A stretch of DNA of 64,000 nucleotides from Paludibacteraceae bacterium. GTDB lineage: Bacteria; Bacteroidota; Bacteroidia; Bacteroidales; Paludibacteraceae. The notes beneath the pieces are model-generated. The model saw only the letters and a program-made list of their open reading frames with translations, searched no databases and was not told where the DNA came from. This document shows positions 3,151 to 56,015 of the stretch, one piece after another. The DNA lies in contig JAZNBO010000038.1 in assembly GCA_045587145.1 (NCBI GenBank), positions 4,275 through 68,274 of the forward strand. The letters are read 5' to 3'. The number at the start of each line of letters is the position of its first letter. Position 1 is the first letter of the stretch. Both the position numbers and the translations under genes were made by a program.

Positions 3151-3258
3151 GGCGCATAGCGCCGTGTAGAGTGGTGTAGAATCGTTTAGAATAGTGTAGA
3201 ATTGTACAACGCTACACAATACTACACAACACTACACAATGCTACACAAAATTGAAAA
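3151..3258. repeat. rnf intercistronic element copy C (with GGCGCATAGCGCC mini-hairpin)
   Basis: Near-identical to copies A and B. Confidence 0.9.
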
Positions 3259-3933: not shown

Positions 3934-4764
3934 TTACTTTATGTCTATCGGCACCTGTATTATTGACAACCATTTTTCAGGATCTTCTTGATTCCAGATA
4001 CCATCTATGTAGCATGTGCGTGGATGCCCAATCATTTGATAACCTTTTTCTTCCATATATTTGAACGCTTCCGCAAACGATTCATAAAATCGTTCGTATG
4101 GACCGATATGTTTCACACATAGTGCTTTCTCAACGGCAGGAAGACGTTTGAATTGTATGATGTGACTATCTTGCCCCATTTCAGCGACTTGTTCGCAATA
4201 CTCAATATCTATACTATCTGGAGAAAACTCTGTGCTATGTTCAATAGTAAAGCAATAACCTGGCATAGGGCATTGACATCCTAATCGTTGCATCTCTGGA
4301 CCGATTTTCTCTACGCACAACATTCCGAGCGCGCTATAATCAGGAATGACTTCTCGATGACTTGCTACGATGACTTCGGGCAATGATTCAATGTTATATT
4401 TCTCCATATGGTTATATTTTTCAGAAGTTTCTATCCAGTTTTTCAGTTGGTCTCGTCTATTTATTAGTTGTTTTAATTGTTCTTCTGTTTTGTTAATCTT
4501 TTCTGTTAGTTGTTTTATGCTTGGCATGTGTGAATCTTCTTCGAATACTTCTTTTATTTCTTCCAGCGAAAAGCCCAAGCGTTGAAGCTGACGAATAGCG
4601 TTCAACTTTTGCATTTGACAAATGGTATAATAGCGATAACCTGTCCATTCGTCCACTTCATCGGGTAAAAGCAAGCCCTTTTTTTCGTAGTGACGAAGTG
4701 TTTTTACGGTCACTTGCATCATTTGTGAAAACTCTCCGATTTTCAATTTCGTTTTTTGTTTCAT
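3934..4764 (-). CDS. MerR-family transcriptional regulator with C-terminal GyrI-like effector-binding domain (BmrR-like architecture)
   Basis: N-terminal HTH KIGEFSQMMQVTVKTLRHYEKKGLL plus coiled-coil, then a ~150-aa C-terminal domain. Confidence 0.8.
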   Translation of the reverse strand: MKQKTKLKIGEFSQMMQVTVKTLRHYEKKGLLLPDEVDEWTGYRYYTICQMQKLNAIRQLQRLGFSLEEIKEVFEEDSHMPSIKQLTEKINKTEEQLKQLINRRDQLKNWIETSEKYNHMEKYNIESLPEVIVASHREVIPDYSALGMLCVEKIGPEMQRLGCQCPMPGYCFTIEHSTEFSPDSIDIEYCEQVAEMGQDSHIIQFKRLPAVEKALCVKHIGPYERFYESFAEAFKYMEEKGYQMIGHPRTCYIDGIWNQEDPEKWLSIIQVPIDIK

Positions 4765-5176: not shown

Positions 5177-7750
5177 ATGAACATGAAAATAGATTGGAAG
5201 AAGATTCTGCCATACGCCGTGGCAATTGTGGCATTCGTGGCAGTGGCGATGATTTATTGCGCTCCTGTATTGGAGGGCAAAGTGCTAGTACAAGGTGATG
5301 TGAACAACTGGAAAGGTGCTGCACAAGAGGCACGTACTTTCTACGACGAGCATGGTACACGTACATGGTGGACCAACTCTATGTTTGGCGGTATGCCTAC
5401 CTACCAGATTACAGGTAGCTTGCCATCTGGTGAAGTGCGCAATGGTATGGCAAAGATCGCTCACCTCGGCATGGAAGGCGGATGGGAAGCCATCGGTATC
5501 ATCTTTGCCTACTTCTTCGGATTCTTCCTCTTGCTTCGTTGTTTTAAGGTCAATCCATGGCTGAGTATCATTGGTGGTTTTGCGATAGGATTCTCGACTT
5601 ATTTCTTTTTGATTATTCCTGCGGGACATATCACCAAGGCTATGGCACTTGGTTTCCTGGCACCCGTTATAGGTGGATTCTATGCTATCTTCCGCAAACA
5701 ATATTGGTTGGGCGCTCCACTCATGGTGCTATACGGTATTCTGAGTATCACTCTCCACCCACAGATGACCTATTATATCTTCATGCTTATTGGTATTATG
5801 GCATGTGCAGAATTGTACATCCATATCAAGGAGAAAGCGTGGAAAGACTTGGGTATATCTGTTGGCGTAGTAGCACTCAGTTTGTTGCTCATCGTGGGTA
5901 CCAAACTCAGTTGGCTCGAAATGAACCAAAACTACCTCAAAGAAACCATGCGTGGTGGACACTCGGAACTGAGAGGCGATGAGGCGAAAGGCGAAAAGGC
6001 GAAAGGCGGAGGTTTAGACTTGGACTACGCTACCGCATGGAGTTATGGTGTGGATGAAACAATGACTTTCCTTATCCCTAACTGGGAAGGTGGTGCGAGC
6101 GGATATAATGTGGGCGAGAAGTCGCAACTTTGCGAGACGATGAAACAGAATGGCGTACCCAAACGTTCTGCCGAACAGTTCTGTGGGCAAGTGCCTACCT
6201 ATCGTGGAGAGAAAGCCTTTACGAGTGGTCCTGTATATATGGGTGCTATTATTTGTTTCCTCTTTGTACTCGGATTGCTGATTGTGAGCGGTCCATACAA
6301 ATGGGCACTGCTTGTAGCTACACTATTCTCCGTTGCATTGGCATGGGGTAGAAATATGATGTGGCTCACAGAACTCTTCTTCAACTACTTCCCAATGTAC
6401 AACAAGTTCCGCGCCGTGGAGAGTATCCTTGTAGTGGCAGAGATCACAATGCCATTGCTCGGTATCATGGCATTGCAACAAGTAGTAGAGAAGAAAATAG
6501 CATGGGATAAGCTAAGAATAAGCATCCTTACCGCTGCTGGTATCACAGGTGGTTTATGCCTCATATTTGCTTTGTTTGGTGCTGCGGTAGATGTAACCAG
6601 TAGTTACGACGGCCAATGGGTAAGCCAAGTGCCTGCATGGCTCAAAGATGCTATCTACGATGAGCGTGTAGCCATGATCAAAGCTGATGCTTGGCGCTCA
6701 CTGATATTTATCGTACTTGGTGCAGGATTGGTATATTGGTATAGTTGGCAGGCTATGAGGCGAGAAGGCGATAAGGCAATGAGGAAATGGACTATTGGTT
6801 TTTATGCACTCCTCGCTGCGCTCGTGCTCGCCGATATGATTCCAGTGAATAAGCGTTTCTTTGGAAATAATAACTTTGTAAAAGCCAAAGATGCTGAACG
6901 ATATTTTGCTATTCAGCCATACGAGGAGCAGATTTTAGAGGATGAGTCGTATTACCGTGTATTGAACTTGGCGACAAATACTTTTAATGATGCACGCACA
7001 AGTTATCGATTGAAATCTATCGGTGGTTATTCGGCTGCAAAATTGCGTCGTTACCAAGATTTGATAGATGAGCATATTTCTAAAGAAATGAATCCGCTGA
7101 TGCAAACGGTGATGCGTACGCAGGGCTTTATGATACCAGATGAGAATGCTGGCAAGGATTTCCCTGTACTGAATATGCTCAATATGAAGTACGCAGTCAT
7201 GCCATTGCAAGGAGGACAGCAAGTACCCGTTATGAACCCGTATGCGATGGGCAATTGTTGGTTTGTGGACGAGGTAATATTGGTAGATACGCCTGATGAG
7301 GAGTGCGCTGCGTTGAGAACGTTGGATTTGCACAAACAGGCGGTGGCTGATAAGAAGTTTGCGGAGGTATTGGATATTACTAAACCCGAGGTGACACCAT
7401 TGATGGCATTTGATGAGAATGTGATCGAGTTGACCTCTTATGCGCCAAACTGCTTGGAGTATGCGGCTATGACCGAGCAAAACAAGGTGGCAGTATTCTC
7501 TGAGATTTACTATCCATATGATTGGCACTTGTATTTGGTAAATGCGAATGGCGAGCAAGTAGAAATTCCTCTTGCACGAGTGAATTATACTTTACGTGCA
7601 GCCGTTATCCCTGCGGGCGCACATCAATTGCGTATGGTCTTTGAACCACATGCTTTGAAGACCGATAAAGCATGCATGGCTATTCTTATTCTTGCATTGC
7701 TTCTGAGCGTAGGTGCTTTAACCTCTCCTTTGTGGAGAAAACAGAAATAA
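5177..7750 (+). CDS. YfhO-family polytopic membrane protein (GT-C-like glycosyltransferase candidate)
   Basis: 857 aa; many TM helices in the N-terminal two thirds, soluble C-terminal domain, final TM; N-terminus typical of Bacteroidota YfhO proteins. Confidence 0.7.
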   Translation: MNMKIDWKKILPYAVAIVAFVAVAMIYCAPVLEGKVLVQGDVNNWKGAAQEARTFYDEHGTRTWWTNSMFGGMPTYQITGSLPSGEVRNGMAKIAHLGMEGGWEAIGIIFAYFFGFFLLLRCFKVNPWLSIIGGFAIGFSTYFFLIIPAGHITKAMALGFLAPVIGGFYAIFRKQYWLGAPLMVLYGILSITLHPQMTYYIFMLIGIMACAELYIHIKEKAWKDLGISVGVVALSLLLIVGTKLSWLEMNQNYLKETMRGGHSELRGDEAKGEKAKGGGLDLDYATAWSYGVDETMTFLIPNWEGGASGYNVGEKSQLCETMKQNGVPKRSAEQFCGQVPTYRGEKAFTSGPVYMGAIICFLFVLGLLIVSGPYKWALLVATLFSVALAWGRNMMWLTELFFNYFPMYNKFRAVESILVVAEITMPLLGIMALQQVVEKKIAWDKLRISILTAAGITGGLCLIFALFGAAVDVTSSYDGQWVSQVPAWLKDAIYDERVAMIKADAWRSLIFIVLGAGLVYWYSWQAMRREGDKAMRKWTIGFYALLAALVLADMIPVNKRFFGNNNFVKAKDAERYFAIQPYEEQILEDESYYRVLNLATNTFNDARTSYRLKSIGGYSAAKLRRYQDLIDEHISKEMNPLMQTVMRTQGFMIPDENAGKDFPVLNMLNMKYAVMPLQGGQQVPVMNPYAMGNCWFVDEVILVDTPDEECAALRTLDLHKQAVADKKFAEVLDITKPEVTPLMAFDENVIELTSYAPNCLEYAAMTEQNKVAVFSEIYYPYDWHLYLVNANGEQVEIPLARVNYTLRAAVIPAGAHQLRMVFEPHALKTDKACMAILILALLLSVGALTSPLWRKQK
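5971..6012. repeat. GGCGAAAGG-type 7-8-bp array in frame inside yfhO (encodes GDEAKGEKAKGGG)
   Basis: GAGAGGCGATGAGGCGAAAGGCGAAAAGGCGAAAGGCGGAGG read directly. Confidence 0.85.
6751..6790. repeat. Degenerate GGCGAnAAGG-type array in frame inside yfhO (encodes AMRREGDKAMRKW)
   Basis: GGCTATGAGGCGAGAAGGCGATAAGGCAATGAGGAAATGG. Confidence 0.6.
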
Positions 7751-12587: not shown

Positions 12588-12637
12588 TGTTTAGAGTTGT
12601 TTAGAATCGTTTAGAGTTGTTTAGAATTGTGTAAAAA
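12588..12637. repeat. Perfectly 10-bp-phased GTTTAGA(G/A)T array x4-5
   Basis: TGTTTAGAGT TGTTTAGAAT CGTTTAGAGT TGTTTAGAAT TGTGTAAAAA; encodes the GT4 C-terminus YTILNNSKRF and its stop. Confidence 0.9.
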
Positions 12638-16352: not shown

Positions 16353-16395
16353 TTGGTGTAGGGTTGTTTAGAATTGTTTAGAGTAGTTTAAAGAG
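16353..16395. repeat. 10-bp-phased GTGTAG/GTTTAG array after the ruvA stop
   Basis: TTGGTGTAGGGTTGTTTAGAATTGTTTAGAGTAGTTTAAAGAG. Confidence 0.8.
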
Positions 16396-16410: not shown

Positions 16411-19400
16411 GTGAAAAAACTGATAATCATATTACTGGCGATTGGCAATGGACTATTGGCAATTGCGCAAGAAGATTCGTTGGCAATGGTAGTAGATACT
16501 GCCATCATGGCACCTATGCAAGTAAAAGGAGTAGGAGTGAACAACTACGACGACTTGAATAGAGTGCATAGTAGTTTGGATCTGCAAGACCCGGAGAATG
16601 TCAATACAACGATCGAGTATGACCCCCTAACCGGTGGTTACGTCGTGCGCACGCGCATGGGCGATGTGGAGATTGCTACTCCCTACATGATGACTGCAGA
16701 GGAGTATCGTACCTACTCCGAAAAACAAGAGATGGGGAAATTCTGGCAAGGGAAAATCAGCGAAGTAGAACACGATAACGAGAGCAAATTTGATATTACC
16801 GATATGAAATTCAATATCGGACCTGCCGATAAAGTTTTTGGTCCTGGCGGCGTACAAGTGAAACTGCAAGGATCGGCTGAACTGCTCTTTGGTTTTAAAC
16901 ACCAATTCATAGACAACCCCGCGCTGACACAACGTTCGCGAAACAACAATATCTTTGACTTTGACGAGAAAATCCAATTGAGCGTGAACGGAAAAGTAGG
17001 TGAGAAACTGAACTTCAACATGAGTTACAACACCGAAGCATCGTTCAGCTTTGACCAACAGAACCTAAAACTGAACTTCAAGGGTCAAGAAGATGATATT
17101 ATCCAATCCTTAGAGGCGGGTAATGTATCCATGACCCTAAACAACAGTTTGATACGCGGTAGTAGCGCACTATTCGGCGTGAAAGCAGATATGAAATTCG
17201 GCAAACTGCGTGTGCAAGCATTGGTGTCGCAGCAGAACTCAGAAAGCCAAACTGTCAGCAGTAAAGGCGGTGCACAGACAACGAACTTTGAGGTGCCAAT
17301 TGACAGTTACGATGAGAATCGACATTTCTTCCTGAGTTACTATTTCCGTGATAACTATGAGCAAGCAATGAAAGCATTGCCATACATCGCGAGCGGCGTG
17401 ACTATCAATCGCATTGAGGTGTGGGTGACAAATAAGCGAGCAAACTACGACGAGGCACGCAATATCGTAGCATTGACCGACTTGGGAGAGTACGACCCAG
17501 TGCATATCCAAAACATACAGTGGAACACTGTATCAGGTGCGCGCACTCCATATAACAAAGCCAATACTCTCTACGAGGTATTGACACAAAGCAATCCTGC
17601 GGTACGTGACATTCAGCAGGTGAGCAGCGTGATGCAATCCATAGGAATGGACGTGAGCGAAGACTATGAGAAAATAGAATCAGCACGCCTATTAAGCAGT
17701 AGTGAATATACACTGAATGCAGCATTAGGTTACATCTCTCTGAAAGCAGCGTTGAACCAAGATGAGGTCTTGGCAGTAGCATACGAATATACCTACGCTG
17801 GACAAGTATATCAAGTGGGTGAGTTCTCAACCGATGCCGGAGAATCGCTGAAAGCACCCAACGCCCTGCTGCTGAAAATGCTGAAAAGTAGCAACAATGC
17901 ACCTATCGCAAAAAACAAAGGCACATGGGACCTCATGATGAAAAACATCTATTCCATCGGAGCAAGTCAGATGAGTAGCGATAAGTTTGAGTTATACGTG
18001 CAATACCGCAACGACTCTGTGGGTACGGATATGCAGTACCTCATGGAAGGTGCTATCAAAGGCAAACAGTTGATTCGCGTAATGGGCATGGATAGATTGG
18101 ATTCGCGCAACAATGCCTCACCCGATGGACGATTTGACTATGTGGAAGGATACACAGCATTGTCGTCTTCGGGACGAATCATTTTCCCCGTATTGGAGCC
18201 TTTTGGTAGTCACTTGAAACGCGAGATCGGTGATCCGAAGGTGGCAGAAAAATATGTCTTCCAAGAGTTGTATGACTCCACCCTAGTGAGCGCGCAAGAA
18301 TATACCGAGAAGAATAAGTTTGCCTTGGTCGGTAAATACAAAGGCTCATCGGGTAACGAGATTCGCCTAAACGCAATGAACGTTCCCCGCGGAAGTGTGG
18401 TGGTAACAGCCGGTGGCGCGACTCTGATAGAGAACGTGGATTACACCGTGGACTATACCATGGGAACCGTGACGATATTGAATCAGTCCATCTTGGAGTC
18501 TGGAACGAATGTCGATGTAAAATTGGAGAATCAAGCCCTATTCTCTATGCAACGTAAATCACTATTCGGTGCGAACTTGCAATATGAGTTTAATAAGGAC
18601 TTTACGATTGGCGGTACCATTATGCACTTGAACGAACGTCCAATCACGACCAAAGTTAATACAGGTAGCGAGCCGTTGGCAAATACTGTGTGGGGCGTGA
18701 ATGCGAATTGGAAGACGGAAATGCAATGGCTGACCCTGCTCATTGACAAAGTGCCATGGATCAATGCTACCGCACCTTCTACCTTCCAAATCAATGCGGA
18801 GTTTGCTCACCTGATACCAGGTCACACCAAAGAAGTGGGACAAGTAGGTACAGCATACATTGACGACTTTGAAGCAACTAAGACCAACATCGATATTCAT
18901 TATCCAAGTTATTGGCGATTGGCTTCTACACCGCGTTCGGATAATTTCCCTGAGTATGCATTGAGCGATTCCGTAGCCTACAACAAGAATCGTGCGCTTT
19001 TGGCGTGGTACACAGTGGACCCTATCTTTGGTAAACCAAGTAGCAACACGCCTAAACACATTAAGGATAACATAGAACTCATGTGCGACCATCGCACACG
19101 TACTGTGTATGAGCAAGAGGTGTACCCTAACAAACAAGTGATGGCAAATGCCGATACACGATTGCCCGTACTGAACCTGAGTTACTACCCCGATGAGCGT
19201 GGTCCGTACAATATCTCTGCTGATGAGATAGGTCGTGACGGTAAATTGACAAATCCACAAGATCGTTGGGGTGGTATCATGCGAAAGTTGGATAACACCG
19301 ATTTTGAGAAAGCCAATATAGAGTATATCGAATTTTGGTTAATGGACCCATTCTTGACCAATCCAGATGCGGCATATACAGGTGGTGACTTATACATAGA

Positions 19401-23915: not shown

Positions 23916-24398
23916 ATGTTTAAGGTTGGTATTATCGGCCCTGAGTCCACAGGCAAGAGTACGCTTGCACAGTATTTGGCCACTCAACATGGTGGATTGT
24001 TCGTTTCCGAGCATGCGCGCGTATATTTAGAGGAGCGAGCGCGCGAGCACGGGAGCGCATACGCGTACACGCGCGAAGATGTGTTGCGCATAGCAGAATA
24101 TCAGGTAGAACAACTTCGTGAACTGTCTCAGCAAGAGGGAGTGGCGTTTTTTGATACAGAACTGATAATCACAAAAGTGTGGTTTGAGCACAAATATGGT
24201 GAGTGTCCTTCGTTTGTAGAAGATGCCTTGCACCAATATCCGATGGACGTGTACTTGTTGTGTTATCCCGATTTGGAGTGGGAACCTGACCCCGTGCGCG
24301 AGAACCCTAATATACGCGAGTACCTATTTGATTGGTATGAGCGTGAGATTCAAGCATTAGACATACCGTATTATATTGTTCGGCATAGTGTAGGGTAG
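23916..24398 (+). CDS. P-loop ATPase/kinase (NadR C-terminal-domain-like)
   Basis: Walker A GPESTGKST; 160 aa. Confidence 0.55.
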   Translation: MFKVGIIGPESTGKSTLAQYLATQHGGLFVSEHARVYLEERAREHGSAYAYTREDVLRIAEYQVEQLRELSQQEGVAFFDTELIITKVWFEHKYGECPSFVEDALHQYPMDVYLLCYPDLEWEPDPVRENPNIREYLFDWYEREIQALDIPYYIVRHSVG

Positions 24399-24452
24399 GG
24401 TTGTATAGGGTAGTGTAGGATGGTGTAGAGTTGTATAAGGTAGTGCAAGATG
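24387..24452. repeat. 10-bp-phased GTGTAGG/GTATAGG array; supplies the last codons (HSVG) and stop of the ATPase gene
   Basis: AGTGTAGGGTAGGGTTGTATAGGGTAGTGTAGGATGGTGTAGAGTTGTATAAGGTAGTGCAAGATGG. Confidence 0.8.
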
Positions 24453-24470
24453 GAAATAGTATAAATAACA

Positions 24471-25390: not shown

Positions 25391-25442
25391 AGGCAATAGG
25401 TGATGGGCAATAGGTGATGGGCTATTGGTTATTGGCTATGGT
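25391..25442. repeat. GGCAATAGG/GGCTATTGG 8-bp-type array in the pgm 5' UTR
   Basis: AGGCAATAGGTGATGGGCAATAGGTGATGGGCTATTGGTTATTGGCTATGG. Confidence 0.85.
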
Positions 25443-27421: not shown

Positions 27422-27459
27422 GCAAGGGGCAGATAAGAGGCAAAATGAGAGAATAGGAA

Positions 27460-27496
27460 ATTAAGAATTATGAATTTTGTATTAAGAATTATGAAT
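27460..27496. repeat. Direct repeat ATTAAGAATTATGAAT x2 (21-bp period)
   Basis: Read directly. Confidence 0.9.
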
Positions 27497-27506
27497 AAGG
27501 ATGAGG

Positions 27507-28349
27507 CTATAACTCAATATGGTGAGCGGTGATAGGTTCGGAGAGGAAGATGGATGCCGACTCGGAGAATTTTGTGGCAGACTCAGTGGTGAGGTAGGTG
27601 ACAGCTTGTTTTTCTCCCTTTTGAGCGTGCTCAGCGATGTCGGGATGGCGTAGAAGGTAGTCTTGCAGGCTGTTGGCTACGATTGCCCCTTGTGCAATAA
27701 CAGATATGTGGCTATTGGCGATTGGCGATTGGCTATGGGAAATGGAAGAAAGAAAGGCTTCAATCTTGGGTTGGAGTAGGGGGTAGTGGGTGCAGCCGAG
27801 AATGATAGTGTCAATCAGTGGATCGCGAGTGAGGAGCTCGGTGAGGTATTTCTCAACGAAATAATCAGCACCAGAATGCAGATGTTCACCTGATTCAATC
27901 AGAGGTACCCACATCGGACACGCTTGTTGGGTGATGGTTAGGGTGGGGTCCTGTTTAAGCAACTCGATGATATAACTCTCGGAGGCTACCGTGCCAGGGG
28001 TAGCAAGAACGCCAATATGCTTGGTGCGAGTGCGCTGCGGTACAACTTCTACCGTAGGGCGGATAACACCTAAGACACGAAGCTCATCAGGATTGATATT
28101 GCGCTGTTGGATAGTGCGAAGTGCCTTAGCACTAGCCGTATTACAAGCGAGAATGATAAGATTGCAGCCTTGTTGGTGGAGATAATTAACAGCTTGAAGG
28201 GTATATTCGTAAATGACATCAAATGAGCGTGTTCCGTATGGCGCACGAGCATTATCGCCCAGGTAGAGATAATCGTACTGGGGGAGATGTTGGCGAATGT
28301 GATTGAGAATCGTTAGTCCGCCGTAACCACTGTCAAATATACCTATCAT
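27507..28349 (-). CDS. murI: Glutamate racemase
   Basis: IGIFDSGYGGLT, LACNTAS and LGCTHYP motifs; ATG 28349 preferred, since the tracked ORF's 41-aa N-terminal extension runs through the promoter. Confidence 0.9.
   Translation of the reverse strand: MIGIFDSGYGGLTILNHIRQHLPQYDYLYLGDNARAPYGTRSFDVIYEYTLQAVNYLHQQGCNLIILACNTASAKALRTIQQRNINPDELRVLGVIRPTVEVVPQRTRTKHIGVLATPGTVASESYIIELLKQDPTLTITQQACPMWVPLIESGEHLHSGADYFVEKYLTELLTRDPLIDTIILGCTHYPLLQPKIEAFLSSISHSQSPIANSHISVIAQGAIVANSLQDYLLRHPDIAEHAQKGEKQAVTYLTTESATKFSESASIFLSEPITAHHIEL
27709..27739. repeat. GGCTATTG/GGCGATTG 8-bp array in frame inside murI (encodes HSQSPIANSHIS)
   Basis: TGGCTATTGGCGATTGGCGATTGGCTATGGG. Confidence 0.85.
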
Positions 28350-28352
28350 TTG

Positions 28353-28386
28353 ATGTAAAGTGTAAGGTGTAAAGTGTAAAGGCACG
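28353..28386. repeat. 7-bp TGTAAAG/TGTAAGG array in the murI 5' leader
   Basis: ATGTAAAGTGTAAGGTGTAAAGTGTAAAGGCACGG. Confidence 0.85.
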
Positions 28387-38878: not shown

Positions 38879-40241
38879 ATTAAAACAAACTCTTCGCGAT
38901 TCAGCTATTGCACGTTGGACAGTTCTTGTCCTTGTGGCATCGATGATGTTCTTTGCATATATGTTTGTGGACATTCTCTCTCCGTTGGCTTCTGTTCTCA
39001 ATGACACACTCGGTTGGGATCAAGGTGTCTTCGGAACGTATGCCTCTGCGGAGTATATTCTTTGTGTCTTCGGTTTCCTCATTTTTGCAGGAATCATTCT
39101 GGATAAGATGGGCGTTCGCTTCACGGGCTTGCTTTCTGCGGGCTTGATGGTGCTTGGCGCATCAATCAAGTATATTGGTATCTCCGACTGGTTTGATGCT
39201 AACAATATCGTTTGGCTCAACTCTTGGTGGACGGCTATGCCAGGTTCTGCTAAGATGGCTGCATTCGGCTTTATGATTTTCGGTTGTGGTTGCGAGATGG
39301 CTGGTACAACTGTAAGTAAGATTCTTGCTAAGTGGTTCAAAGGCAAAGAGATGGCGCTTGCTATGGGACTTGAAATGGCTATCGCACGTATTGGTGTGTT
39401 TGCTGCCATGGCGTTTTCTCCTGCTATCAGCGAGCATTTTGCTGTGAATGGCAATCCATCAGTAGTTGCTTCGCTGTTGTTTGCGGCTCTTCTGCTCGTA
39501 GTTGGCTTGCTCAACTTCTTCGTATTTACTATTATGGATACCAAGTTTGACAAGCAACTTGTGGCTATTGGTGAGGCAACTGAGATGAAAGATCCAGAGG
39601 ATGAGTTCCATGTGTCTGATCTTGGTAAGATTTTCAGCAGCAAGATGTTCTGGATTATTGCACTCTTGTGCGTGTTGTACTATTCTGCTATTTTCCCATT
39701 CCAACGCTTTGCTACCAACTTCCTTGAGGAGACTTTGGCGATTAGTAATGCTGAGGCATCTGGTCTATTTAAGTGGTTCCCTATCTTGGCAATGGTACTT
39801 ACTCCATTCCTCGGTATGTTCATTGATTATAAGGGAAAAGGTGCTTCTATGATGATGATTGGTGCGATTATTATGGTTATTTGCCATAGTATTTTCGCAT
39901 TTGTATTGCCTGCATTCCCAAGTAAAGGACTTGCTCTCTGTACTATTTTGGTGTTGGGCGTGAGCTTCTCGTTGGTGCCTGCGTCAATGTGGCCATCTGT
40001 TCCAAAGATTATCGATGAGAAGATTTTAGGTTCTGCATATTGCCTCATTTTCTGGGTGCAAAACATTGGTTTGTGTCTTGTACCTATGCTGATTGGTAAA
40101 CTCCGTGTTTCTACCGATGGTTATGTAGTGCCTATGATTGTCTTTGCATCATTTGGTGTGATCGCTTTTGTATTGAGCCTTGCATTGAAGGTGGAGGATA
40201 AGAAGAAAGGCTATGGATTGGAGCTTCCTAATAAGAAATAA
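38868..40241 (+). CDS. MFS-type transporter
   Basis: ~12 predicted TM segments; ATG 38868 preferred, since the tracked 42-aa N-terminal extension is basic and non-membrane and overlaps the small ORF. Confidence 0.7.
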   Translation: MVQQLKQTLRDSAIARWTVLVLVASMMFFAYMFVDILSPLASVLNDTLGWDQGVFGTYASAEYILCVFGFLIFAGIILDKMGVRFTGLLSAGLMVLGASIKYIGISDWFDANNIVWLNSWWTAMPGSAKMAAFGFMIFGCGCEMAGTTVSKILAKWFKGKEMALAMGLEMAIARIGVFAAMAFSPAISEHFAVNGNPSVVASLLFAALLLVVGLLNFFVFTIMDTKFDKQLVAIGEATEMKDPEDEFHVSDLGKIFSSKMFWIIALLCVLYYSAIFPFQRFATNFLEETLAISNAEASGLFKWFPILAMVLTPFLGMFIDYKGKGASMMMIGAIIMVICHSIFAFVLPAFPSKGLALCTILVLGVSFSLVPASMWPSVPKIIDEKILGSAYCLIFWVQNIGLCLVPMLIGKLRVSTDGYVVPMIVFASFGVIAFVLSLALKVEDKKKGYGLELPNKK

Positions 40242-41514
40242 GGAGTCCATCCTTGTGAGTACGGATACACGCAATCTGCCTGCAGGTTGCGTGTTCTTTG
40301 CGCTTCATGGGGCGAATTTTGATGGCAATAAGTTTGCTAAGCAGGCACTCGAAAGCGGTGCTACATTGGCAGTGATTGATAATCCTGAATATGCATTGGC
40401 AGAAGGAACTCTATTGGTACCCAATACGTTGCTGGCTTTGCAAGATTTGGCACGCGCATGGCGTCGTGAATTAGGACTACCTATCATCGGTATTACTGGT
40501 ACCAACGGCAAGACAACCACCAAAGAGCTCTTGGCAGCAGTTCTTTCCACGAAATATAATATCCACTATACGCAGGGAAACCTCAATAATCAAATAGGTG
40601 TACCCCTTACCTTATTACAAATCTCGCGTGCGCACGAGATGGCTATCGTGGAGATGGGTGCTTCACATCCGGGTGATATTAAAGAACTCGTGGATATAGC
40701 AGAGCCTAACTATGGGTTGATTACTAATGTCGGTCGCGCTCATTTAGAAGGATTTGGCTCGTTTGAAGGCGTGCAACGCACCAAGCAAGAACTCTACGAC
40801 TACCTCGTTGCTCATAATGGTACTATCTTCCGCAATGTCGACAACACTTACCTCATGCGCATGCATGAGAATGCTCTTGCCTCTCGCCTTAGCGGGGTCC
40901 CCGAAAACGCTTGTGGCGTTTTGGGGTGCTCTTCGCCTCTCGCCAGCGGGGTCCCCGAAAAATCTGCTGATTTTTGGGGTGCTCTATCGCCTATTACCTA
41001 CACCACAGGCACAATGCCATCTGGCACAAATCTTGTTGGAGGATATAATGCGGAGAATGTGTCTGCTGCTTTGTGTGTAGGTGCGTATTTTGGGGTTTCG
41101 AAGGAGCAAGCGTTGGAGGCTGTTCGCCGTTATGTGCCAACAAATAATCGTTCACAAGCCATGCAAACGGCTAACAACCAGTTGATAGTAGATGCTTATA
41201 ATGCGAATCCGACATCTATGCAGGCGGCTATCAACGCATTCAAAGGCGATACATACATTCTTGGTGCGATGCGTGAGTTGGGAGAATACTCGCACTTGGA
41301 ACACCAGAATGTGGTGAATATGTTGGCTGAGCGCAAGGCTGATTGGGTCTTTCTCGTAGGAGAAGAGTACTTGCAGACGACATCGCCATATCCTGTGTAT
41401 GAGAATGTAGAGCAATTACATGAATACTTGGAGGCGAATCCGCTGAAAGGTAAAAATATCCTTCTCAAAGGCTCTCGCTCTACTAAAATGGAAAAATTGT
41501 TAGATATACTATAA
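40213..41514 (+). CDS. murF: UDP-N-acetylmuramoyl-tripeptide--D-alanyl-D-alanine ligase
   Basis: VSTDTR, GITGTNGKTTTKE, DAYNANP and LKGSR motifs. Confidence 0.85.
   Translation: MDWSFLIRNKESILVSTDTRNLPAGCVFFALHGANFDGNKFAKQALESGATLAVIDNPEYALAEGTLLVPNTLLALQDLARAWRRELGLPIIGITGTNGKTTTKELLAAVLSTKYNIHYTQGNLNNQIGVPLTLLQISRAHEMAIVEMGASHPGDIKELVDIAEPNYGLITNVGRAHLEGFGSFEGVQRTKQELYDYLVAHNGTIFRNVDNTYLMRMHENALASRLSGVPENACGVLGCSSPLASGVPEKSADFWGALSPITYTTGTMPSGTNLVGGYNAENVSAALCVGAYFGVSKEQALEAVRRYVPTNNRSQAMQTANNQLIVDAYNANPTSMQAAINAFKGDTYILGAMRELGEYSHLEHQNVVNMLAERKADWVFLVGEEYLQTTSPYPVYENVEQLHEYLEANPLKGKNILLKGSRSTKMEKLLDIL
40873..40991. repeat. In-frame tandem 54-bp module (2 full units plus a partial third), each unit containing a terminator-like hairpin
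   Basis: GCTCTTGCCTCTCGCC..GCGGGGTCCCCGAAAACGC-TTGT-GGCGTTTTGGGGT and GCTCTTCGCCTCTCGCC..GCGGGGTCCCCGAAAAATC-TGCT-GATTTTTGGGGT, then GCTCTATCGCC. Confidence 0.9.
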
Positions 41515-43050: not shown

Positions 43051-43058
43051 GTTATATA

Positions 43059-43108
43059 TAGCCTATCGCCTATCGCCAATAGCTAATAGCCAATAGCCTA
43101 TCGCCAAT
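43059..43108. repeat. GCCTATCGCC/AATAGCC 8-bp-type array (complement orientation of the GGCnATnGG family)
   Basis: TAGCCTATCGCCTATCGCCAATAGCTAATAGCCAATAGCCTATCGCCAAT. Confidence 0.85.
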
Positions 43109-43113
43109 AATCC

Positions 43114-43151: not shown

Positions 43152-44696
43152 TTATTTCAGTTTCTTAAATGTCTCACGCATATTGCATGCCTTGCTGAGG
43201 ATAGCGTGGAGGTCCTCAATCTTCACGCGCTCTTGCGCCATCGTATCGCGGTGGCGGATAGTTACGCAGTTGTCATTCAAAGTGTCGTGATCCACAGTGA
43301 TACAGAATGGTGTACCTACCGCATCTTGACGGCGATAACGCTTACCGATAGAGTCCTTCTCATCGTAGTTGGTGTGGAAGTCATACTTCAACATATCCAC
43401 GATCTCACGCGCTTTCTCTGGCAGACCATCTTTCTTCACCAATGGCATAACACAAGCTTTAACAGGAGCCAAAACAGCAGGCAAGTTCAACACTACGCGA
43501 GTGTCACCACCCTCAAGTACCTCTTCCTTATACGCACCGCACATCACACTCAGGAACATACGATCCACACCAATACTGGTCTCAATCACGTATGGGGTGT
43601 AGCTCTTGTTGAGTTCTGGATCGAAGTACTCGATCTTTTTGCCACTATATTGTGCGTGTTGGCTGAGGTCGAAGTCGGTACGGCTGTGGATACCCTCTAC
43701 CTCCTTGAATCCGAATGGCATTTGGAACTCGATATCGGTAGCTGCGTTAGCGTAGTGAGCGAGTTTATCGTGGTCGTGGTAGCGGTAGTTCTCATCACCC
43801 ATACCGAGAGCCTTATGCCATTTGAGGCGGAACTCCTTCCAGTACTCAAACCACTTCATCTCCTCGCCTGGACGAACGAAGAACTGCATCTCCATTTGCT
43901 CGAACTCGCGCATACGGAAGACGAATTGGCGAGCCACAATCTCATTACGGAAAGCCTTACCAATCTGTGCAATACCGAAAGGAATCTTCATACGACCCGT
44001 CTTTTGTACATTGAGGTAGTTCACGAAGATACCTTGTGCAGTTTCAGGACGGAGATAAATCTTCATCGCACCATCGGCAGTAGAACCCATCTCGGTAGAG
44101 AACATGAGGTTGAACTGACGAACATCGGTCCAGTTGCGTGTACCTGAAATAGGGCAAACGATTTCCTCATCAAGGATGATTTGTTTGAGTTCCTCGAGGT
44201 TGCTGTCGTTGAGCGCAGTAGCAAAACGCTCGTGGAGGGCGTTGCGTTTCTCTACATTAGCTTTTACACGTTCGTTGGTTTGCTTGAACATCTCCTCATC
44301 AAAGCTCTCGCCGAAGCGTTTGCGCGCCTTAGCTACCTCTTTCTCAATCTTCTCGTCGTACTTAGCGAGTTGATCCTCGATGAGTACGTCTGCGCGGTAG
44401 CGTTTCTTGCTATCCTTATTGTCAATGAGTGGATCATTGAATGCGTCCACGTGACCAGATGCTTTCCAAGTAGTAGGGTGCATAAAGATACTTGCATCAA
44501 TACCTACGATATTCTCGTGGAGCATGGTCATTGCATCCCACCAGTATTTCTTGATGTTGTTCTTGAGTTCTACACCGTTTTGACCGTAATCATACACGGC
44601 GCCAAGTCCGTCGTAAATCTCGCTGCTTGGAAAAACAAATCCGTACTCCTTGCAGTGTGCGACTAATTTTTTGAAGGTTTCTTCTTGTGTTGCCAT
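43152..44696 (-). CDS. glyQS: Glycine--tRNA ligase (dimeric class II GlyQS type)
   Basis: 514 aa; FRNEI(V/S)xR motif 2 (AFRNEIVARQF); C-terminal anticodon-binding domain. Confidence 0.95.
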   Translation of the reverse strand: MATQEETFKKLVAHCKEYGFVFPSSEIYDGLGAVYDYGQNGVELKNNIKKYWWDAMTMLHENIVGIDASIFMHPTTWKASGHVDAFNDPLIDNKDSKKRYRADVLIEDQLAKYDEKIEKEVAKARKRFGESFDEEMFKQTNERVKANVEKRNALHERFATALNDSNLEELKQIILDEEIVCPISGTRNWTDVRQFNLMFSTEMGSTADGAMKIYLRPETAQGIFVNYLNVQKTGRMKIPFGIAQIGKAFRNEIVARQFVFRMREFEQMEMQFFVRPGEEMKWFEYWKEFRLKWHKALGMGDENYRYHDHDKLAHYANAATDIEFQMPFGFKEVEGIHSRTDFDLSQHAQYSGKKIEYFDPELNKSYTPYVIETSIGVDRMFLSVMCGAYKEEVLEGGDTRVVLNLPAVLAPVKACVMPLVKKDGLPEKAREIVDMLKYDFHTNYDEKDSIGKRYRRQDAVGTPFCITVDHDTLNDNCVTIRHRDTMAQERVKIEDLHAILSKACNMRETFKKLK

Positions 44697-50382: not shown

Positions 50383-50423
50383 CCTTGCCTTTCGCCTTTA
50401 GCCTTTCGCCTTTAATCTCTTTA
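50383..50423. repeat. CCTTTCGCC array (complement of GGCGAAAGG); supplies the DedA C-terminus KRLKAKG and its stop
   Basis: CCTTGCCTTTCGCCTTTAGCCTTTCGCCTTTAATCTCTTTA. Confidence 0.85.
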
Positions 50424-51153
50424 CCACTGTTTTTACCACGAAGTACACAATGACTATGCCCAGCAGTGCCATAACGGCGATGCTCAGCTCATGACTGTAC
50501 TCATGAATTAGATCCATTTGTCCGTGTGCAATATAACCGAGCAATGCCAAAACAATATTCCAAATACTTGCTCCCAAGAAGGTATAAAAGATAAACTGAC
50601 CAAAGTTCATCTTACTCAGTCCCGCAGGGATACTTATTAGTTGGCGAATACCTGGTATTAGACGTCCTACAAAAGTGGAAATCTTGCCATGATCGTTGAA
50701 ATAGTCCTCTGCTTTCTTCACTTTCTCCGAAGACAACAAACAGAGATGTCCGATCTTGCTATCTGCAAACGCGTAGATGATAGGACGACCGAGCCATAAA
50801 GCTAAAAAGTAGTTGATAATAGCACCGAGCAAAGCACCTATCGTACCGAAGAGTACAATGAGTAGCACATTGAGAGGATAGCTGTTGGTTGCATGCAAAC
50901 TGCTATCTTCTTTCCCTGCTACGTATGCTGCGGGAGGAATAACAATCTCGCTTGGGAAAGGAATAAATGATGATTCTACCGTCATCAATAGCGTGATGCT
51001 CAAATAGTTCATGTTGTTAGCATACCAATTCTCTACTTGCATCACAAGGCTTTCGTCTCGTGGGATTGTAGTAGTGCTGTCATTAACTATTTGCGCATTT
51101 ACGCTAAGGATGGTGGTTGCAAATAATACAAATAAAATAATTACTTTCTTCAT
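50398..51153 (-). CDS. DedA/VTT-domain membrane protein
   Basis: FIPFPSE...PPAAY...GRLIPGIRQLISIPAG motifs. Confidence 0.8.
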   Translation of the reverse strand: MKKVIILFVLFATTILSVNAQIVNDSTTTIPRDESLVMQVENWYANNMNYLSITLLMTVESSFIPFPSEIVIPPAAYVAGKEDSSLHATNSYPLNVLLIVLFGTIGALLGAIINYFLALWLGRPIIYAFADSKIGHLCLLSSEKVKKAEDYFNDHGKISTFVGRLIPGIRQLISIPAGLSKMNFGQFIFYTFLGASIWNIVLALLGYIAHGQMDLIHEYSHELSIAVMALLGIVIVYFVVKTVVKRLKAKG

Positions 51154-51173
51154 GTATAATTTGGATCGTTAAT

Positions 51174-52193
51174 CTATATTTCCCATTGTTCGAGGGTAGT
51201 GGTGAGTTGGTCGAATGTCTTTACCTTACTCTTTTCACGAACTTCATTAATCTGCTGATTGACAGCAGCGTCGTATGCCTCCGTTTCTACGCGGCGAATG
51301 ACACCGAGGGCGATTGGCAATTGGCAATTGGCAATTGGCGATGGGTCTTCTTGTCCCATCATAGCAAGCATGCGATGGAGGGTAGGGTCTTGCAGTGTGG
51401 CATCGTGGGTGAGTACGCGTGGGTCTTCGGCTGGCACTACGATGAGTTGAGGAATCAATCCCTGTGAGTAGTCTAATGCTAAGCCTTTGTCTTTCGCTTT
51501 GCCGAAAATCATTTTTTCTCCATGGCGCAGAATGATACTGCGTTCAGCACGCTCTTCGCGGTCTGCAATCCATGAGTGGGTACCATTGTTGAAAATCACG
51601 CAGTTTACCAAACACTCAATCACACTAGCACCTTTGTGTTGAGACGCCTGTACCATGCAGTCCACTGTGGTAGGCATATCTACGTCCAATGTGCGAGCGA
51701 AGAACGTACCGCGTGCGCCAAATACCAATTCGGCAGGAATAAAGGGACGCTCTACGGTACCAAATGGACTGGACTTGCTGACAAATCCCTTGGGTGAAGT
51801 AGGTGAGTATTGACCTTTGGTCAAACCATAAATGCGGTTGTTGAAGAGGCAGATGTTCAAATCTACATTGCGGCGGATCTCATGGATAAAGTGATTACCA
51901 CCAATAGCGAGGCAGTCGCCATCGCCTGTCATTTGCCAAACGCTGAGTTCTGGGTGGCTGGTTTTTACGCCAGTAGCAATAGCTCCACCGCGACCATGAA
52001 TGGTATTAAAGCCGTAGGTGTTGAGGTAGTGAGGCATACGAGATGAACAACCGATACCTGATATCACGGCTACTTGGTGTGTTGGTACGCCTACTTGTGC
52101 CATGGCTTTTTGTAACGCCATGCAGATAGCATGATCACCACAACCAGGGCAGAACTTTACATATTGATTACTCTTAAATTGACTTGCTTCCAT
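51174..52193 (-). CDS. korB: 2-oxoglutarate/2-oxoacid:ferredoxin oxidoreductase beta (TPP-binding) subunit
   Basis: CPGCGDH and TGDGDCLAIGGNH motifs; ATG 52193 lies 2 nt after the korA stop, so the tracked longer ORF overlaps korA. Confidence 0.85.
   Translation of the reverse strand: MEASQFKSNQYVKFCPGCGDHAICMALQKAMAQVGVPTHQVAVISGIGCSSRMPHYLNTYGFNTIHGRGGAIATGVKTSHPELSVWQMTGDGDCLAIGGNHFIHEIRRNVDLNICLFNNRIYGLTKGQYSPTSPKGFVSKSSPFGTVERPFIPAELVFGARGTFFARTLDVDMPTTVDCMVQASQHKGASVIECLVNCVIFNNGTHSWIADREERAERSIILRHGEKMIFGKAKDKGLALDYSQGLIPQLIVVPAEDPRVLTHDATLQDPTLHRMLAMMGQEDPSPIANCQLPIALGVIRRVETEAYDAAVNQQINEVREKSKVKTFDQLTTTLEQWEI
51309..51345. repeat. GGCAATTG 8-bp array in frame inside korB (encodes SPIANCQLPIA)
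   Basis: GGCGATTGGCAATTGGCAATTGGCAATTGGCGATGGG. Confidence 0.9.
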
Positions 52194-52195
52194 AA

Positions 52196-54049
52196 TTATC
52201 GATTTTGTATAAAGTTGATAATTCTTTTTATGACAAAAGGTTGAGCGGTAATTTCGTTGTATTGCTCCAGATGTAGTCCTTCGAACTTCGAGCGCAAGTA
52301 GGCTGCAAATTGTCCTTGATTGAGCTCGCACACAATCACACGCTTATATTTGCGCAATACCTCTTCTGTGTTAGCAGGTAGTGGGTTGATATAATTGAAC
52401 TGTGCCAATGCGCAACCCGTAGCTTCTGCAGCAGCGTGCAAGTGGCCTTCGGTGCTTCCCCAACCCACGAGCAGTGTGTCGCTATCAGCGTTGCCTTGTA
52501 CTTGTAGCAGAGGTATCTGCTGACCGATCTGTTGTATTTTAGCTTGGCGAATCTTCACCATTCGCTCGTGGTTCTCTGGGTTGGTAGAGATAATACCCTT
52601 CTCTGCATCGCGCTCAAGACCTATATTGCGGTGCTCATACCCTTCCATGCCTGGATACGCCCAATAGCGCACACCGCGCTCATCACGCAATGCAGGGTTA
52701 TAGTTACCTTTGAGTTCCTCGGGTACTCCTTGTGGCTCAATGGTAGGCAGATCACTCAGCTGTGGTATGCGCCAGAGTCCAGTACCATTCGCCAGGAAGG
52801 TGTCAGTCAATAGTACTACAGGCGTCATGTTCTCTAGTGCAATCTTGCAAGCCTGATATGCATAGTCGAAGCAGTTTGCTGATGTGGAGGCAGCTATCAC
52901 CACGGCTGGGCATTCGCCATTGCGTCCGTAGATAGCTTGCATGAGGTCTGTTTGTTCGGTTTTGGTAGGCAGACCCGTAGAAGGTCCACCACGTTGAACA
53001 TCAATAACGACAAGTGGCAACTCTGCCATCACAGCCAATCCGATAGCTTCGCCTTTGAGACTCAGACCTGGACCAGATGTGCTAGTAGCAGCCAAATCGC
53101 CAGCGAAAGCAGCACCGATAGCGGTACATACGCCGGCAATCTCATCTTCAGCTTGTACTACCATTACACCCATATCCTTGCGAGCAGCAAGTTCGTGCAT
53201 AATATCTGTGGCAGGAGTAATAGGGTAGGAACCCAAGAATAGTCGCTTTCCGCATTTTTCTGCTGCGGCGATGAGTCCCCAAGCTGTAGCTTTGTTGCCT
53301 GCGATAGAGGTATATGTGCCTTTTGGGAGCTCGCGGGATTTCTCAACGTTCATGGTTTGGATATTGAGCGCGAGGTTGTTGCCATAGTTATAGCCATCGG
53401 TGAGCACCTTGACATTGGGGGCGATGAGTTGTGGTTTCTTGTGGAATTTGCTCTCCAAAAAAGCAATAGCTTTGTCCACAGGACGGTTGAAAAGCCAACA
53501 AACCAATCCCAATGCAAACATATTTCGCGATTTAAGGATAGACTTATTGTCTAATCCCATGTCCTTGAGGCTATCTTTGGTAAGTTGAGTGAGGGCTACA
53601 GGGATAATCTGTACCGATTCGGGTAATCCCAACTCTGTAAATGGATTGTCGGTTTGATAGAGTGCTTTCTCCAAATCTTTAGCAGAAAGAGAGTCGGTGT
53701 CCACGATAATGACAGCATCGCGTTTGAACATCGAATCGCTGGCTTCCCACTTTGCGCCTGCTTGGTTGAATTTGCTACCTAAGGCACATACTTTGAGGGC
53801 AGCAGCGTTCATGGCTACTAACACATCGGCTTGATCACCAGGGGTATAGACACCCGTACCTAATTGAACTTGGAAACCGCTGACACCACCCAAAGTGCCT
53901 TGAGGGGCGCGAATTTCGGCAGGAAAATCGGGCAGCGTACTAATCTCGTTGCCTAGTATTGCACTCAATGAGGAGAACATTGTACCGGTAAGTTGCATAC
54001 CGTCTCCTGAGTCACCGCAAAAGCGGATTACTATACGTTGTTTTTGCAT
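52196..54049 (-). CDS. korA: 2-oxoglutarate/2-oxoacid:ferredoxin oxidoreductase alpha subunit
   Basis: 617 aa; N-terminal gamma-like domain fused to the alpha (pyrimidine-binding) domain; GSYPITPAT motif. Confidence 0.85.
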   Translation of the reverse strand: MQKQRIVIRFCGDSGDGMQLTGTMFSSLSAILGNEISTLPDFPAEIRAPQGTLGGVSGFQVQLGTGVYTPGDQADVLVAMNAAALKVCALGSKFNQAGAKWEASDSMFKRDAVIIVDTDSLSAKDLEKALYQTDNPFTELGLPESVQIIPVALTQLTKDSLKDMGLDNKSILKSRNMFALGLVCWLFNRPVDKAIAFLESKFHKKPQLIAPNVKVLTDGYNYGNNLALNIQTMNVEKSRELPKGTYTSIAGNKATAWGLIAAAEKCGKRLFLGSYPITPATDIMHELAARKDMGVMVVQAEDEIAGVCTAIGAAFAGDLAATSTSGPGLSLKGEAIGLAVMAELPLVVIDVQRGGPSTGLPTKTEQTDLMQAIYGRNGECPAVVIAASTSANCFDYAYQACKIALENMTPVVLLTDTFLANGTGLWRIPQLSDLPTIEPQGVPEELKGNYNPALRDERGVRYWAYPGMEGYEHRNIGLERDAEKGIISTNPENHERMVKIRQAKIQQIGQQIPLLQVQGNADSDTLLVGWGSTEGHLHAAAEATGCALAQFNYINPLPANTEEVLRKYKRVIVCELNQGQFAAYLRSKFEGLHLEQYNEITAQPFVIKRIINFIQNR

Positions 54050-55967: not shown

Positions 55968-56015
55968 GATTGGGGCTATTGGCTATTGGTTATTGGCTAT
56001 GGGCGAGGGGATAGG
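55968..56015. repeat. GGCTATTGG 8-bp array after the lepA stop
   Basis: GATTGGGGCTATTGGCTATTGGTTATTGGCTATGGGCGAGGGGATAGG. Confidence 0.85.

Follow-up and report, generated by a model that had tools for sequence, protein, structure and literature searches.

The stretch of DNA analyzed here (64,000 nt, hereafter the window; positions 4,275 to 68,274 of contig JAZNBO010000038.1, assembly GCA_045587145.1, from a Paludibacteraceae bacterium) contains a short tandem repeat at 51309-51345, which lies inside a conserved metabolic gene on the minus strand, korB (51174-52193). This gene encodes the thiamine pyrophosphate (TPP)-binding β subunit of a 2-oxoglutarate/2-oxoacid:ferredoxin oxidoreductase (OFOR), a protein of 339 amino acids (aa) that starts with MEASQF and matches PF02775. 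Gene callers predict the identical 339-aa protein on 12 contigs. Directly upstream, in the same operon, is korA (52196-54049, minus strand), which encodes the α subunit with its POR and POR_N domains. A sequence search matched KorB to the β subunits 6n2n_B and 5b46_B of the Protein Data Bank, with an alignment restricted to residues 3-212, which leaves the linker discussed below outside the aligned part. When a predicted model of KorB was compared with known structures using Foldseek, 6n2n_B, from the Magnetococcus 2-oxoglutarate enzyme, ranked first (E = 5e-19). KorB has the CPGCG cysteine motif at its N terminus, with C15 and C18 invariant. As judged from sequence and model, the TPP domain, cysteine motif, predicted fold, and adjoining korA identify the host gene as one encoding an OFOR β subunit.

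The string GGCGATTGGCAATTGGCAATTGGCAATTGGCGATGGG was found at 51309-51345, and its position inside the TPP-subunit gene, reported by a first-pass annotation of this DNA, agrees with both the coding sequence (CDS) and the PF02775 match. Re-translation also returned the same minus-strand peptide, SPIANCQLPIA, ahead of LGVIRR. The unit of the repeat, previously read as an 8-bp GGCAATTG, had however been miscounted. Tandem Repeats Finder gives a period of 7 with 4.4 copies and a 95% match, and the self-identity of the array is 29/43 at lag 7 versus 13/42 at lag 8. Because the unit is 7 bp, the step that preserves the frame is 21 bp (7 aa), and not 24 bp. On the plus strand, the letters are GGCGATT GGCAATT GGCAATT GGCAATT GGCGATG GG, i.e. 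five units with the consensus GGCNATT. In the sense of the gene, the array consists of CCCATCG (51345-51339), three copies of CCAATTG (51338-51318), CCAATCG (51317-51311), and a final CC (51310-51309). Only three unit copies are perfect, and all three frames of the sense array, with its CCAATTG units, are open. The sense codons are GAC CCA TCG CCA ATT GCC AAT TGC CAA TTG CCA ATC GCC (D-P-S-P-I-A-N-C-Q-L-P-I-A), the array peptide being P284-S-P-I-A-N-C-Q-L-P-I-A295, right after which the conserved LGVIRR begins. Part of this sequence is native, since TTG CCA ATC GCC (51309-51320, minus strand) encodes L292-P293-I294-A295, which is conserved in all relatives. The remainder (51321-51345, minus strand), encoding P284-Q291, is lineage-specific, derived from the array, and a low-confidence coil in the structure model. 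The native P-I-A codons by themselves amount to ∼1.3 family units (CCAATCG CC), in register with the array.

Searching with KorB identified 80 species-level loci (referred to by L numbers), all of which belong to uncultured Paludibacteraceae/Bacteroidales metagenome-assembled genomes (MAGs) from herbivore and human guts. The host is therefore an uncultured gut/rumen Paludibacteraceae lineage, and the assignment to Prevotella/Prevotellaceae suggested earlier does not hold, considering that the relatives are uncultured Paludibacteraceae/Bacteroidales MAGs. The 120 close KorB homologues examined (88-91% identity) vary in internal length only between MMGQE and LPIALGVIR. Across the 80 species, this linker is 8-35 aa long between invariant flanks, and in the wider family it is ∼19 aa and non-periodic (QERYMEV...ELPIA). 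Linkers of 8-10 aa arose independently several times, and it is this repeated shortening that shows the segment to be dispensable. The korB copy thus sits in a dispensable linker of variable length. The array segment is not an ancestral protein feature, as had been proposed, since the nearest short-loop relatives read QEGDTTLPIA where the window protein reads QEDPSPIANCQLPIA. An ortholog alignment did not show the clean 7-8-aa gap that had been expected; compared with the nearest short loops, the net length difference is +5 aa, and the site is a linker of generally variable length (8-35 aa), not an otherwise conserved stretch carrying a single insert.

Alignment with distant KorB proteins shows that the segment joins a helix starting with HD to the conserved P-x-G-[LV]-[IL]-[RY] strand, and that the crystallized Magnetococcus protein has ∼4 residues at the linker position. 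An alignment of 32 sequences, all ∼90% identical, gave a model with a mean predicted local distance difference test (pLDDT) score of only 33, which was not used. The AlphaFold model considered here was built after distant KorB proteins, found by querying with a fragment of 6N2N_B, had been added to the alignment, and it has a predicted template modeling score (pTM) of 0.69 and a mean pLDDT of 63. It shows a helix (271-280), a coil (281-290), and a strand (291-301), after which come two helices at pLDDT 70-85, with pLDDT <50 for residues 265-291. In this moderate model of the β subunit alone, the insert has the anticipated loop character, i.e. it is a predicted coil (pLDDT <50) between a helix and a confident strand, and residues 284-291 are predicted to form a flexible linker. 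Elsewhere in KorB, residues 201-250 (window ∼51444-51593) include a ∼40-aa extra segment (HSWIADREERAERSIILRHGEKMIFGKAKDKGLALDY...) that is absent from the crystallized Magnetococcus β subunit and has pLDDT <50.

The same linker carries arrays in other species. Every species, short loops included, closes the linker with the native CC[A/T]AT[C/T/A]G followed by C (the P-I-A codons), and this native unit is in register with the CCAATNG arrays found in the window, L081-83, and L011. Neighbor-joining trees of the near clade, whether of protein or nucleotide sequences, are almost star-like and compatible with either one or several origins of the CCAATNG array in these lineages. Other species have other units at this site: GAGGTTA/AAGGCGA, which has the opposite purine/pyrimidine orientation, in L008, L015, L018, and L019; GGCGATTA in L005; ACCAAGT in L034 and L058; AGTCGAA in L061; and ACGATGT in L071. 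ACCAAGT is also found in tandem elsewhere in its own loci, at three further sites in L034 and one in L058. Among 68 species, there are 12 in which the lag-7 identity of the linker tops that of every same-size window in the remaining korB (∼0.2 expected), and the units in those 12 are unrelated (CCAATNG, GAGGTTA/AAGGCGA, ACCAAGT, and AGTCGAA). L019 differs from L015/L008/L018 by one 21-bp block of three units, which gives EVKGERL.EVKGEKL.

Not all KorB loops are heptameric. The commonest class, STLPxSLQGRxTGTTSPIEGEIERG (29 aa), present in L003/L004 and about half of the 120 close homologues, is not, and another kind of insert therefore uses the same linker. The DNA of this class holds short G/C-rich hairpins (CCTCCCTTCAAGGGAGG and TCTCCCATAGAAGGGGAGA). 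Period-8 arrays also occur, as CCTCATCA CCTAATAG CCTTATAA CCTCATCA in L001 (L001/L002) and as two copies of TCACCGAT in L045, showing that the linker accepts octamer repeats too. Around the genes, very long heptamer arrays flank korAB in L078 (2485-2626, 4071-4177, and 5386-5527 of that locus), AGTCGAA reaching ∼20 units and AATTGAG ∼15, and AATTAAG-type arrays lie just past the korB stop codon in many related species (e.g. L006, L039, L040, and L069).

We next consider stability. Twelve contigs assembled independently of one another (NCBI, ENA, and Logan) encode the exact 339-aa KorB, and the identical array in these 12 assemblies, made from different samples with different assemblers, rules out an assembly artefact. 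One further locus, L064, belongs to the same species as the window (98.6% nucleotide identity). The array is identical in all 13 same-species contigs (the 12 retrieved by exact protein match plus L064), though korB differs by 4-19 single-nucleotide polymorphisms. In the sister lineages L081 and L082/L083, at ∼81-82% DNA identity, a homologous array has an equal number of units after CCCATCG and differs by point substitutions only (CCAATTA, CCAATTG, and CCAATTT). As the unit number has been kept in these lineages, the korB array is old and has retained its length. The fragility to single-unit slippage implied by the first-pass annotation is thus not borne out, either within the species or at ∼82% DNA identity. 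A metagenome scan for copy-number variants, using the conserved 5' flank, returned a single contig, which was already known, and no frameshifted allele.

A nearby array behaves differently among the same korB-identical strains. At its 3' end, a gene encoding a VTT-domain protein takes its last five codons (LKAKG) and its stop from an AAAGGCG-type array at 50387-50414 (minus strand). Among these strains (L084-L090), this array consists of either four units or ∼6 diverged units, changing the C terminus from LKAKG* to LKGEGKS* and the protein length from 251 to 253 aa.

The korB array is one member of a family dispersed over the window. When periods 4-12 were scanned, strong enrichment was found only for period 7, with eight arrays observed versus 0.15 in shuffled sequences (∼50-fold), and for period 10 (11 versus 0.1). 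The pattern GGCNATTGGCNATTGGC, allowing two mismatches or fewer, has 19 overlapping matches at seven loci (0.12 expected), and the variant unit ATTGGCKATGG occurs in four arrays (0.05 expected). These pattern and period-7 scans agree with the earlier view that the repeat family is dispersed and mostly non-coding in the window, and the five other places listed for it were all recovered. Three are intergenic. The first, at 25392-25442 on the plus strand (GGCAATA, two copies of GGTGATG, then GGCTATT GGTTATT GGCTATG), lies 34-36 nt upstream of a phosphoglucomutase gene's start codon. The second, at 43057-43109, has ∼7 units, G-rich on the minus strand, and lies 47 nt past the stop codon of a minus-strand gene for a class II aminoacyl-tRNA synthetase (43152-44696). 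The third (GGCTATT GGCTATT GGTTATT GGCTATG GGC, 55968-56015, plus strand) begins 10 nt past the lepA stop codon. The remaining two are coding, in murI (27709-27740) and at 16436-16470 on the plus strand, where the SprA (PF14349) signal peptide has its hydrophobic core, LAIGNGLLAIAQ, encoded by the four units GGCGATT GGCAATG GACTATT GGCAATT. In addition, a related AAAGGCG/AGGCGAA subfamily occupies three places, one being the 3' end of the VTT-domain gene and the other two lying in a gene for an 857-aa membrane protein, where an AGGCGAA-type array is read in frame (RGDEAKGEKAKGG) at 5974-6008 (plus strand) and a second in-frame array (QAMRREGDKA) lies at 6750-6777. This multi-pass membrane protein (open reading frame (ORF) 5177-7750), with two or more heptamer arrays in frame, has no Pfam match, and its array peptides resemble KorB loop classes of other species. 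Non-coding arrays are mostly made of CCAATAG and include in-phase stop codons. In the loci of the 80 related species, period-7 arrays occur at 10-17 per 100 kb, with lineage-specific units.

The murI array shows directly how such repeats change inside a gene. In the sense of the gene (minus strand), it reads TCCATTT CCCATAG CCAATCG CCAATCG CCAATAG CCAC, encoding ...SHSQSPIANSH..., in the same frame as the korB array (SQSPIAN). It corresponds to an insertion of ∼11 aa relative to solved structures of MurI, a glutamate racemase. In 120 close MurI homologues, the segment is 32 (array-free), 40, 47, 54, or 61 aa long, i.e. it changes in 7-aa steps, and its peptide repeat is QSPIAN[SCRH]. Unit numbers of 0, 5, 8, and 14 were read from DNA, with 11 inferred from peptide length (loci L095-L098 are among these relatives), and relatives that are 82-99% identical have anywhere from 0 to 4 copies of the peptide. 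In coding murI copies, every third unit, which is read as CAA TNG, avoids TAG. These steps and this stop avoidance are the signature of unit-wise mutation filtered by selection for an open frame. The earlier prediction that only three-unit changes keep the frame is therefore seen at work, both in this MurI series and in the EVKGERL.EVKGEKL loops of KorB. Two other heptamer arrays border murI: four copies of TGTAAAG (28354-28381) end 4 nt upstream of its likely start (MIGIFDSG), and an AATTAAG/AATTATG array (27459-27496) begins 11 nt past its stop codon.

Taken together, these arrays are real and dispersed, and family members differ in length by whole units from one strain or species to another. 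The only ones found in coding DNA are stop-free variants of frame-preserving length, at permissive sites. The family thus has the properties of heptameric long simple-sequence repeats: 7-nt units arranged head to tail, an excess over chance in the window, and, at the level of the family, whole-unit change among relatives. This change is seen in MurI (0, 5, 8, and 14 units), in the 3' array of the VTT-domain gene (4 or ∼6), and in the EVKGE class of KorB (three units), whereas the korB copy itself shows none within its species. Our interpretation, to which we assign a probability of about 70%, is that the korB feature is a fixed, in-frame heptanucleotide simple-sequence repeat (SSR), one member of a dispersed family whose micro-arrays (3-8 units) fill intergenic spacers, tolerated here in a permissive loop. 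Such arrays would be made by slippage in replication or by template switching, with unit-like native sequence as the seed. For korB, the seed may have been the Pro-Ile-Ala codons CCAATCGCC, already ∼1.3 units. For the AAGGCGA class, the candidate seed is GAGGGCGAT, which lies at the short loop's 5' edge, and for the L061 array of AGTCGAA units it is CTCGAAGTCGAA. The korB array would have been fixed through the neutrality of the extra linker residues, and it would today be ordinary coding sequence, slowly diverging and with no function of its own.

Several points weigh against this interpretation. The first unit, CCCATCG, resembles the CCCATAG that opens other arrays of the family, which is not predicted by plain slippage of the native CCAATCG. 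Nowhere else in the window does the exact CCAATTG unit occur in tandem. The KorB model is moderate (mean pLDDT 63) and the α/β interface lies outside it, and the neutrality of the insert is something that we infer. The 12 identical contigs were found by exact protein identity, which excludes copy-number variants by construction and makes L064 the sole unbiased sample. Finally, the evidence on whether the array originated in place or was copied from another array points both ways. Copying is favored because the korB and murI arrays share a CCCAT[C/A]G first unit and a frame, and in-place growth because there is no CCAATTG donor array in the window and native proto-units lie beside each array.

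Copying is the alternative that survives best, although we regard it as possible rather than probable. Here, a template switch or gene conversion from an existing array, guided by microhomology with the native CCAATCGCC, would have put several units into korB at once. This would account for the near-identity of the korB and murI arrays, which both open with CCCAT[C/A]G and are read in the same frame, for the ATTGGCKATGG variant common to four arrays (versus 0.05 expected), and for KorB loops elsewhere that bear the intergenic unit of their own species, as ACCAAGT does with its three other tandem sites in L034 and one in L058. Inserts of both orientations in the same KorB loop point in the same direction. 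Yet no donor array of CCAATTG units could be named, since no tandem copies of this unit were found elsewhere in the window, and there are neither target-site duplications nor defined ends. Native sequence similar to the unit lies directly next to every array examined, which fits in-place seeding equally well. Were copying correct, the family would spread by copying itself, which would also explain why lineages have units of their own.

We consider it doubtful, but worth stating, that the arrays are the output of an active lineage-specific process that seeds on microhomology. This could be template switching with a sequence preference, copying between arrays, or selection for a DNA- or RNA-binding factor with heptad spacing. 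If so, such a process would repeatedly rewrite permissive loops, signal peptides, and C termini of Paludibacteraceae housekeeping proteins, with steady length variation in quanta of 7 aa.

The first-pass annotation had likened the korB insert to in-frame colonization by Rickettsia palindromic elements (RPEs). An RPE is a discrete, palindromic stretch of ∼100-150 bp, and its consensus is conserved. The likeness stands as far as the outcome is concerned, since in both cases repeat DNA is tolerated in frame in housekeeping genes where the fold is undisturbed, and the peptides derived from the present repeats lie at permissive sites of housekeeping enzymes. It fails as to the nature of the DNA, and a discrete transposable palindromic repeat, whether like RPEs or like miniature inverted-repeat transposable elements, inserted in frame into korB, is very improbable. 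The plus strand of the korB copy does have hairpin potential (-14.3 kcal/mol, z = -3.6), but this is because CAATTG is a palindrome, and the sense strand and other family members fold insignificantly (z -1.0 to -2.9, with weak energies). There is no inverted repeat of at least 10 nt within 500 nt (51100-51600 searched). Rather than a mobile element of fixed length and ends, the korB feature is a 35-bp tandem array of 7-mers, from a family in which array length ranges from 3 to 14 units, unit sequences vary, termini are not conserved, and changes in multiples of three units are the behavior of an SSR. RPEs are mentioned in PMC1779305 and PMC10969869.

It is just as improbable that the array is a contingency (phase-variable) tract, in which slippage by one or two units would toggle KorB. 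Contingency loci are coding-region SSRs of host-adapted pathogens (PMC2651432, PMC4692102), and korB resembles them in having, within its CDS, a tandem repeat whose 7-bp unit is not divisible by three. A change of one or two units would shift the frame ahead of the conserved C-terminal 45 residues, and arrays of the family do differ in length between strains. The korB array has, however, only three perfect units, and the repeat-number polymorphism within a species that characterizes contingency loci is absent from the 13 contigs, 12 of them from an exact protein match. Sister species at ∼82% DNA identity keep the unit number, and the sole scan able to show a frameshifted allele returned the single known contig. 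Moreover, the gene belongs to central metabolism and has neither a surface nor a restriction-modification function, and coding variants of the family all preserve the frame. The remaining alternative, that a SPIAN-type peptide is functional in KorB and the DNA periodicity secondary, is barely credible, for although the motif is common to KorB and MurI and kept across sister species, the nearest relatives lack it or have unrelated sequence at the site, the same DNA occurs at non-coding positions with in-phase stop codons, the segment is predicted to be disordered, and the copy number in MurI varies from 0 to 4 among relatives that are 82-99% identical.

Comparison with published systems shows that the window arrays fit a known kind of prokaryotic heptanucleotide SSR and are not a new molecular system. 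The closest precedents are the GGGAATC repeats of Xanthomonas and GGGGAYT repeats of Nostoc (Rehm et al. 2015, PMC4692102). Like these, the window arrays have a 7-bp unit with a G-rich strand, are short (typically ∼4 units), spread genome-wide, mostly within ∼50 bp of ORF ends, and vary widely in length and sequence among close relatives, for which polymerase slippage has been proposed. The differences are threefold. The host is an uncultured Bacteroidales lineage; the Xanthomonas and Nostoc heptamers are depleted in coding DNA, whereas several copies are found here in frame inside conserved enzymes; and a G-quadruplex is unlikely. Indeed, the arrays lack the four or more runs of at least three G per array that such a structure requires, as the GGCNATT units hold only GG runs, and judging by these units we set this possibility aside. 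As cited in PMC4679880 and PMC4692102, Mrazek et al. (2007) described heptanucleotides as the commonest class of long SSRs in bacterial genomes rich in 5-11-nt repeats, and slippage was proposed.

TAACTGA heptamer direct repeats are known from Beggiatoaceae, Cyanobacteria, and some Bacteroidetes, including Paludibacter (MacGregor 2015, PMC4679880). These are likewise intergenic, in 2-6 or more copies, often a few nt from a start codon, as are the four copies of TGTAAAG 4 nt upstream of murI. They also occur occasionally inside ORFs, giving 7-aa peptide repeats at the protein periphery, and some overlap stop codons. In contrast to the window units, TAACTGA has stops in all forward frames, and its in-ORF cases mostly concern hypothetical proteins or protein termini, not internal linkers of proteins such as KorB or MurI. 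A series in three-unit steps is undocumented there (PMC4679880).

The window has other repeats. Three near-identical intergenic elements of ∼90 bp (707-793, 1823-1908, and 3163-3249) each consist of four decamers in tandem (GTGTAGAATN) and, after these, four in inverted orientation (..CTACACAAN). They lie between consecutive plus-strand genes and would form a stem of ∼40 bp. Related decamer half-arrays are found at 12588-12630, 16364-16390, and 24386-24453, and period-10 arrays (11 versus 0.1 expected) are enriched to the same degree as those of period 7. A 54-bp tandem repeat (2.2 copies, 84% match) lies at 40872-40992, within ORF 40213-41514.

On its own, the korB array is an ordinary fixed passenger, and it is the wider pattern, i.e. 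recurrent arrays in the KorB linker and a quantized MurI series, that is of moderate interest for genome evolution. For annotators and modelers, there is a caution in that unusual loops of low complexity such as SPIAN and EVKGE, when met in proteins of these uncultured gut Bacteroidales, derive from repeats, and the array sites could serve as markers for strain typing. The system offers a natural example of a frame-incompatible 7-bp SSR entering essential genes, which it does in dispensable linkers, with stop-free units, and in three-unit (7-aa) steps only. The MurI series (0, 5, 8, 11, and 14 units) and the recurrent arrays of the KorB linker show how a mutational habit of the whole genome is filtered by selection.

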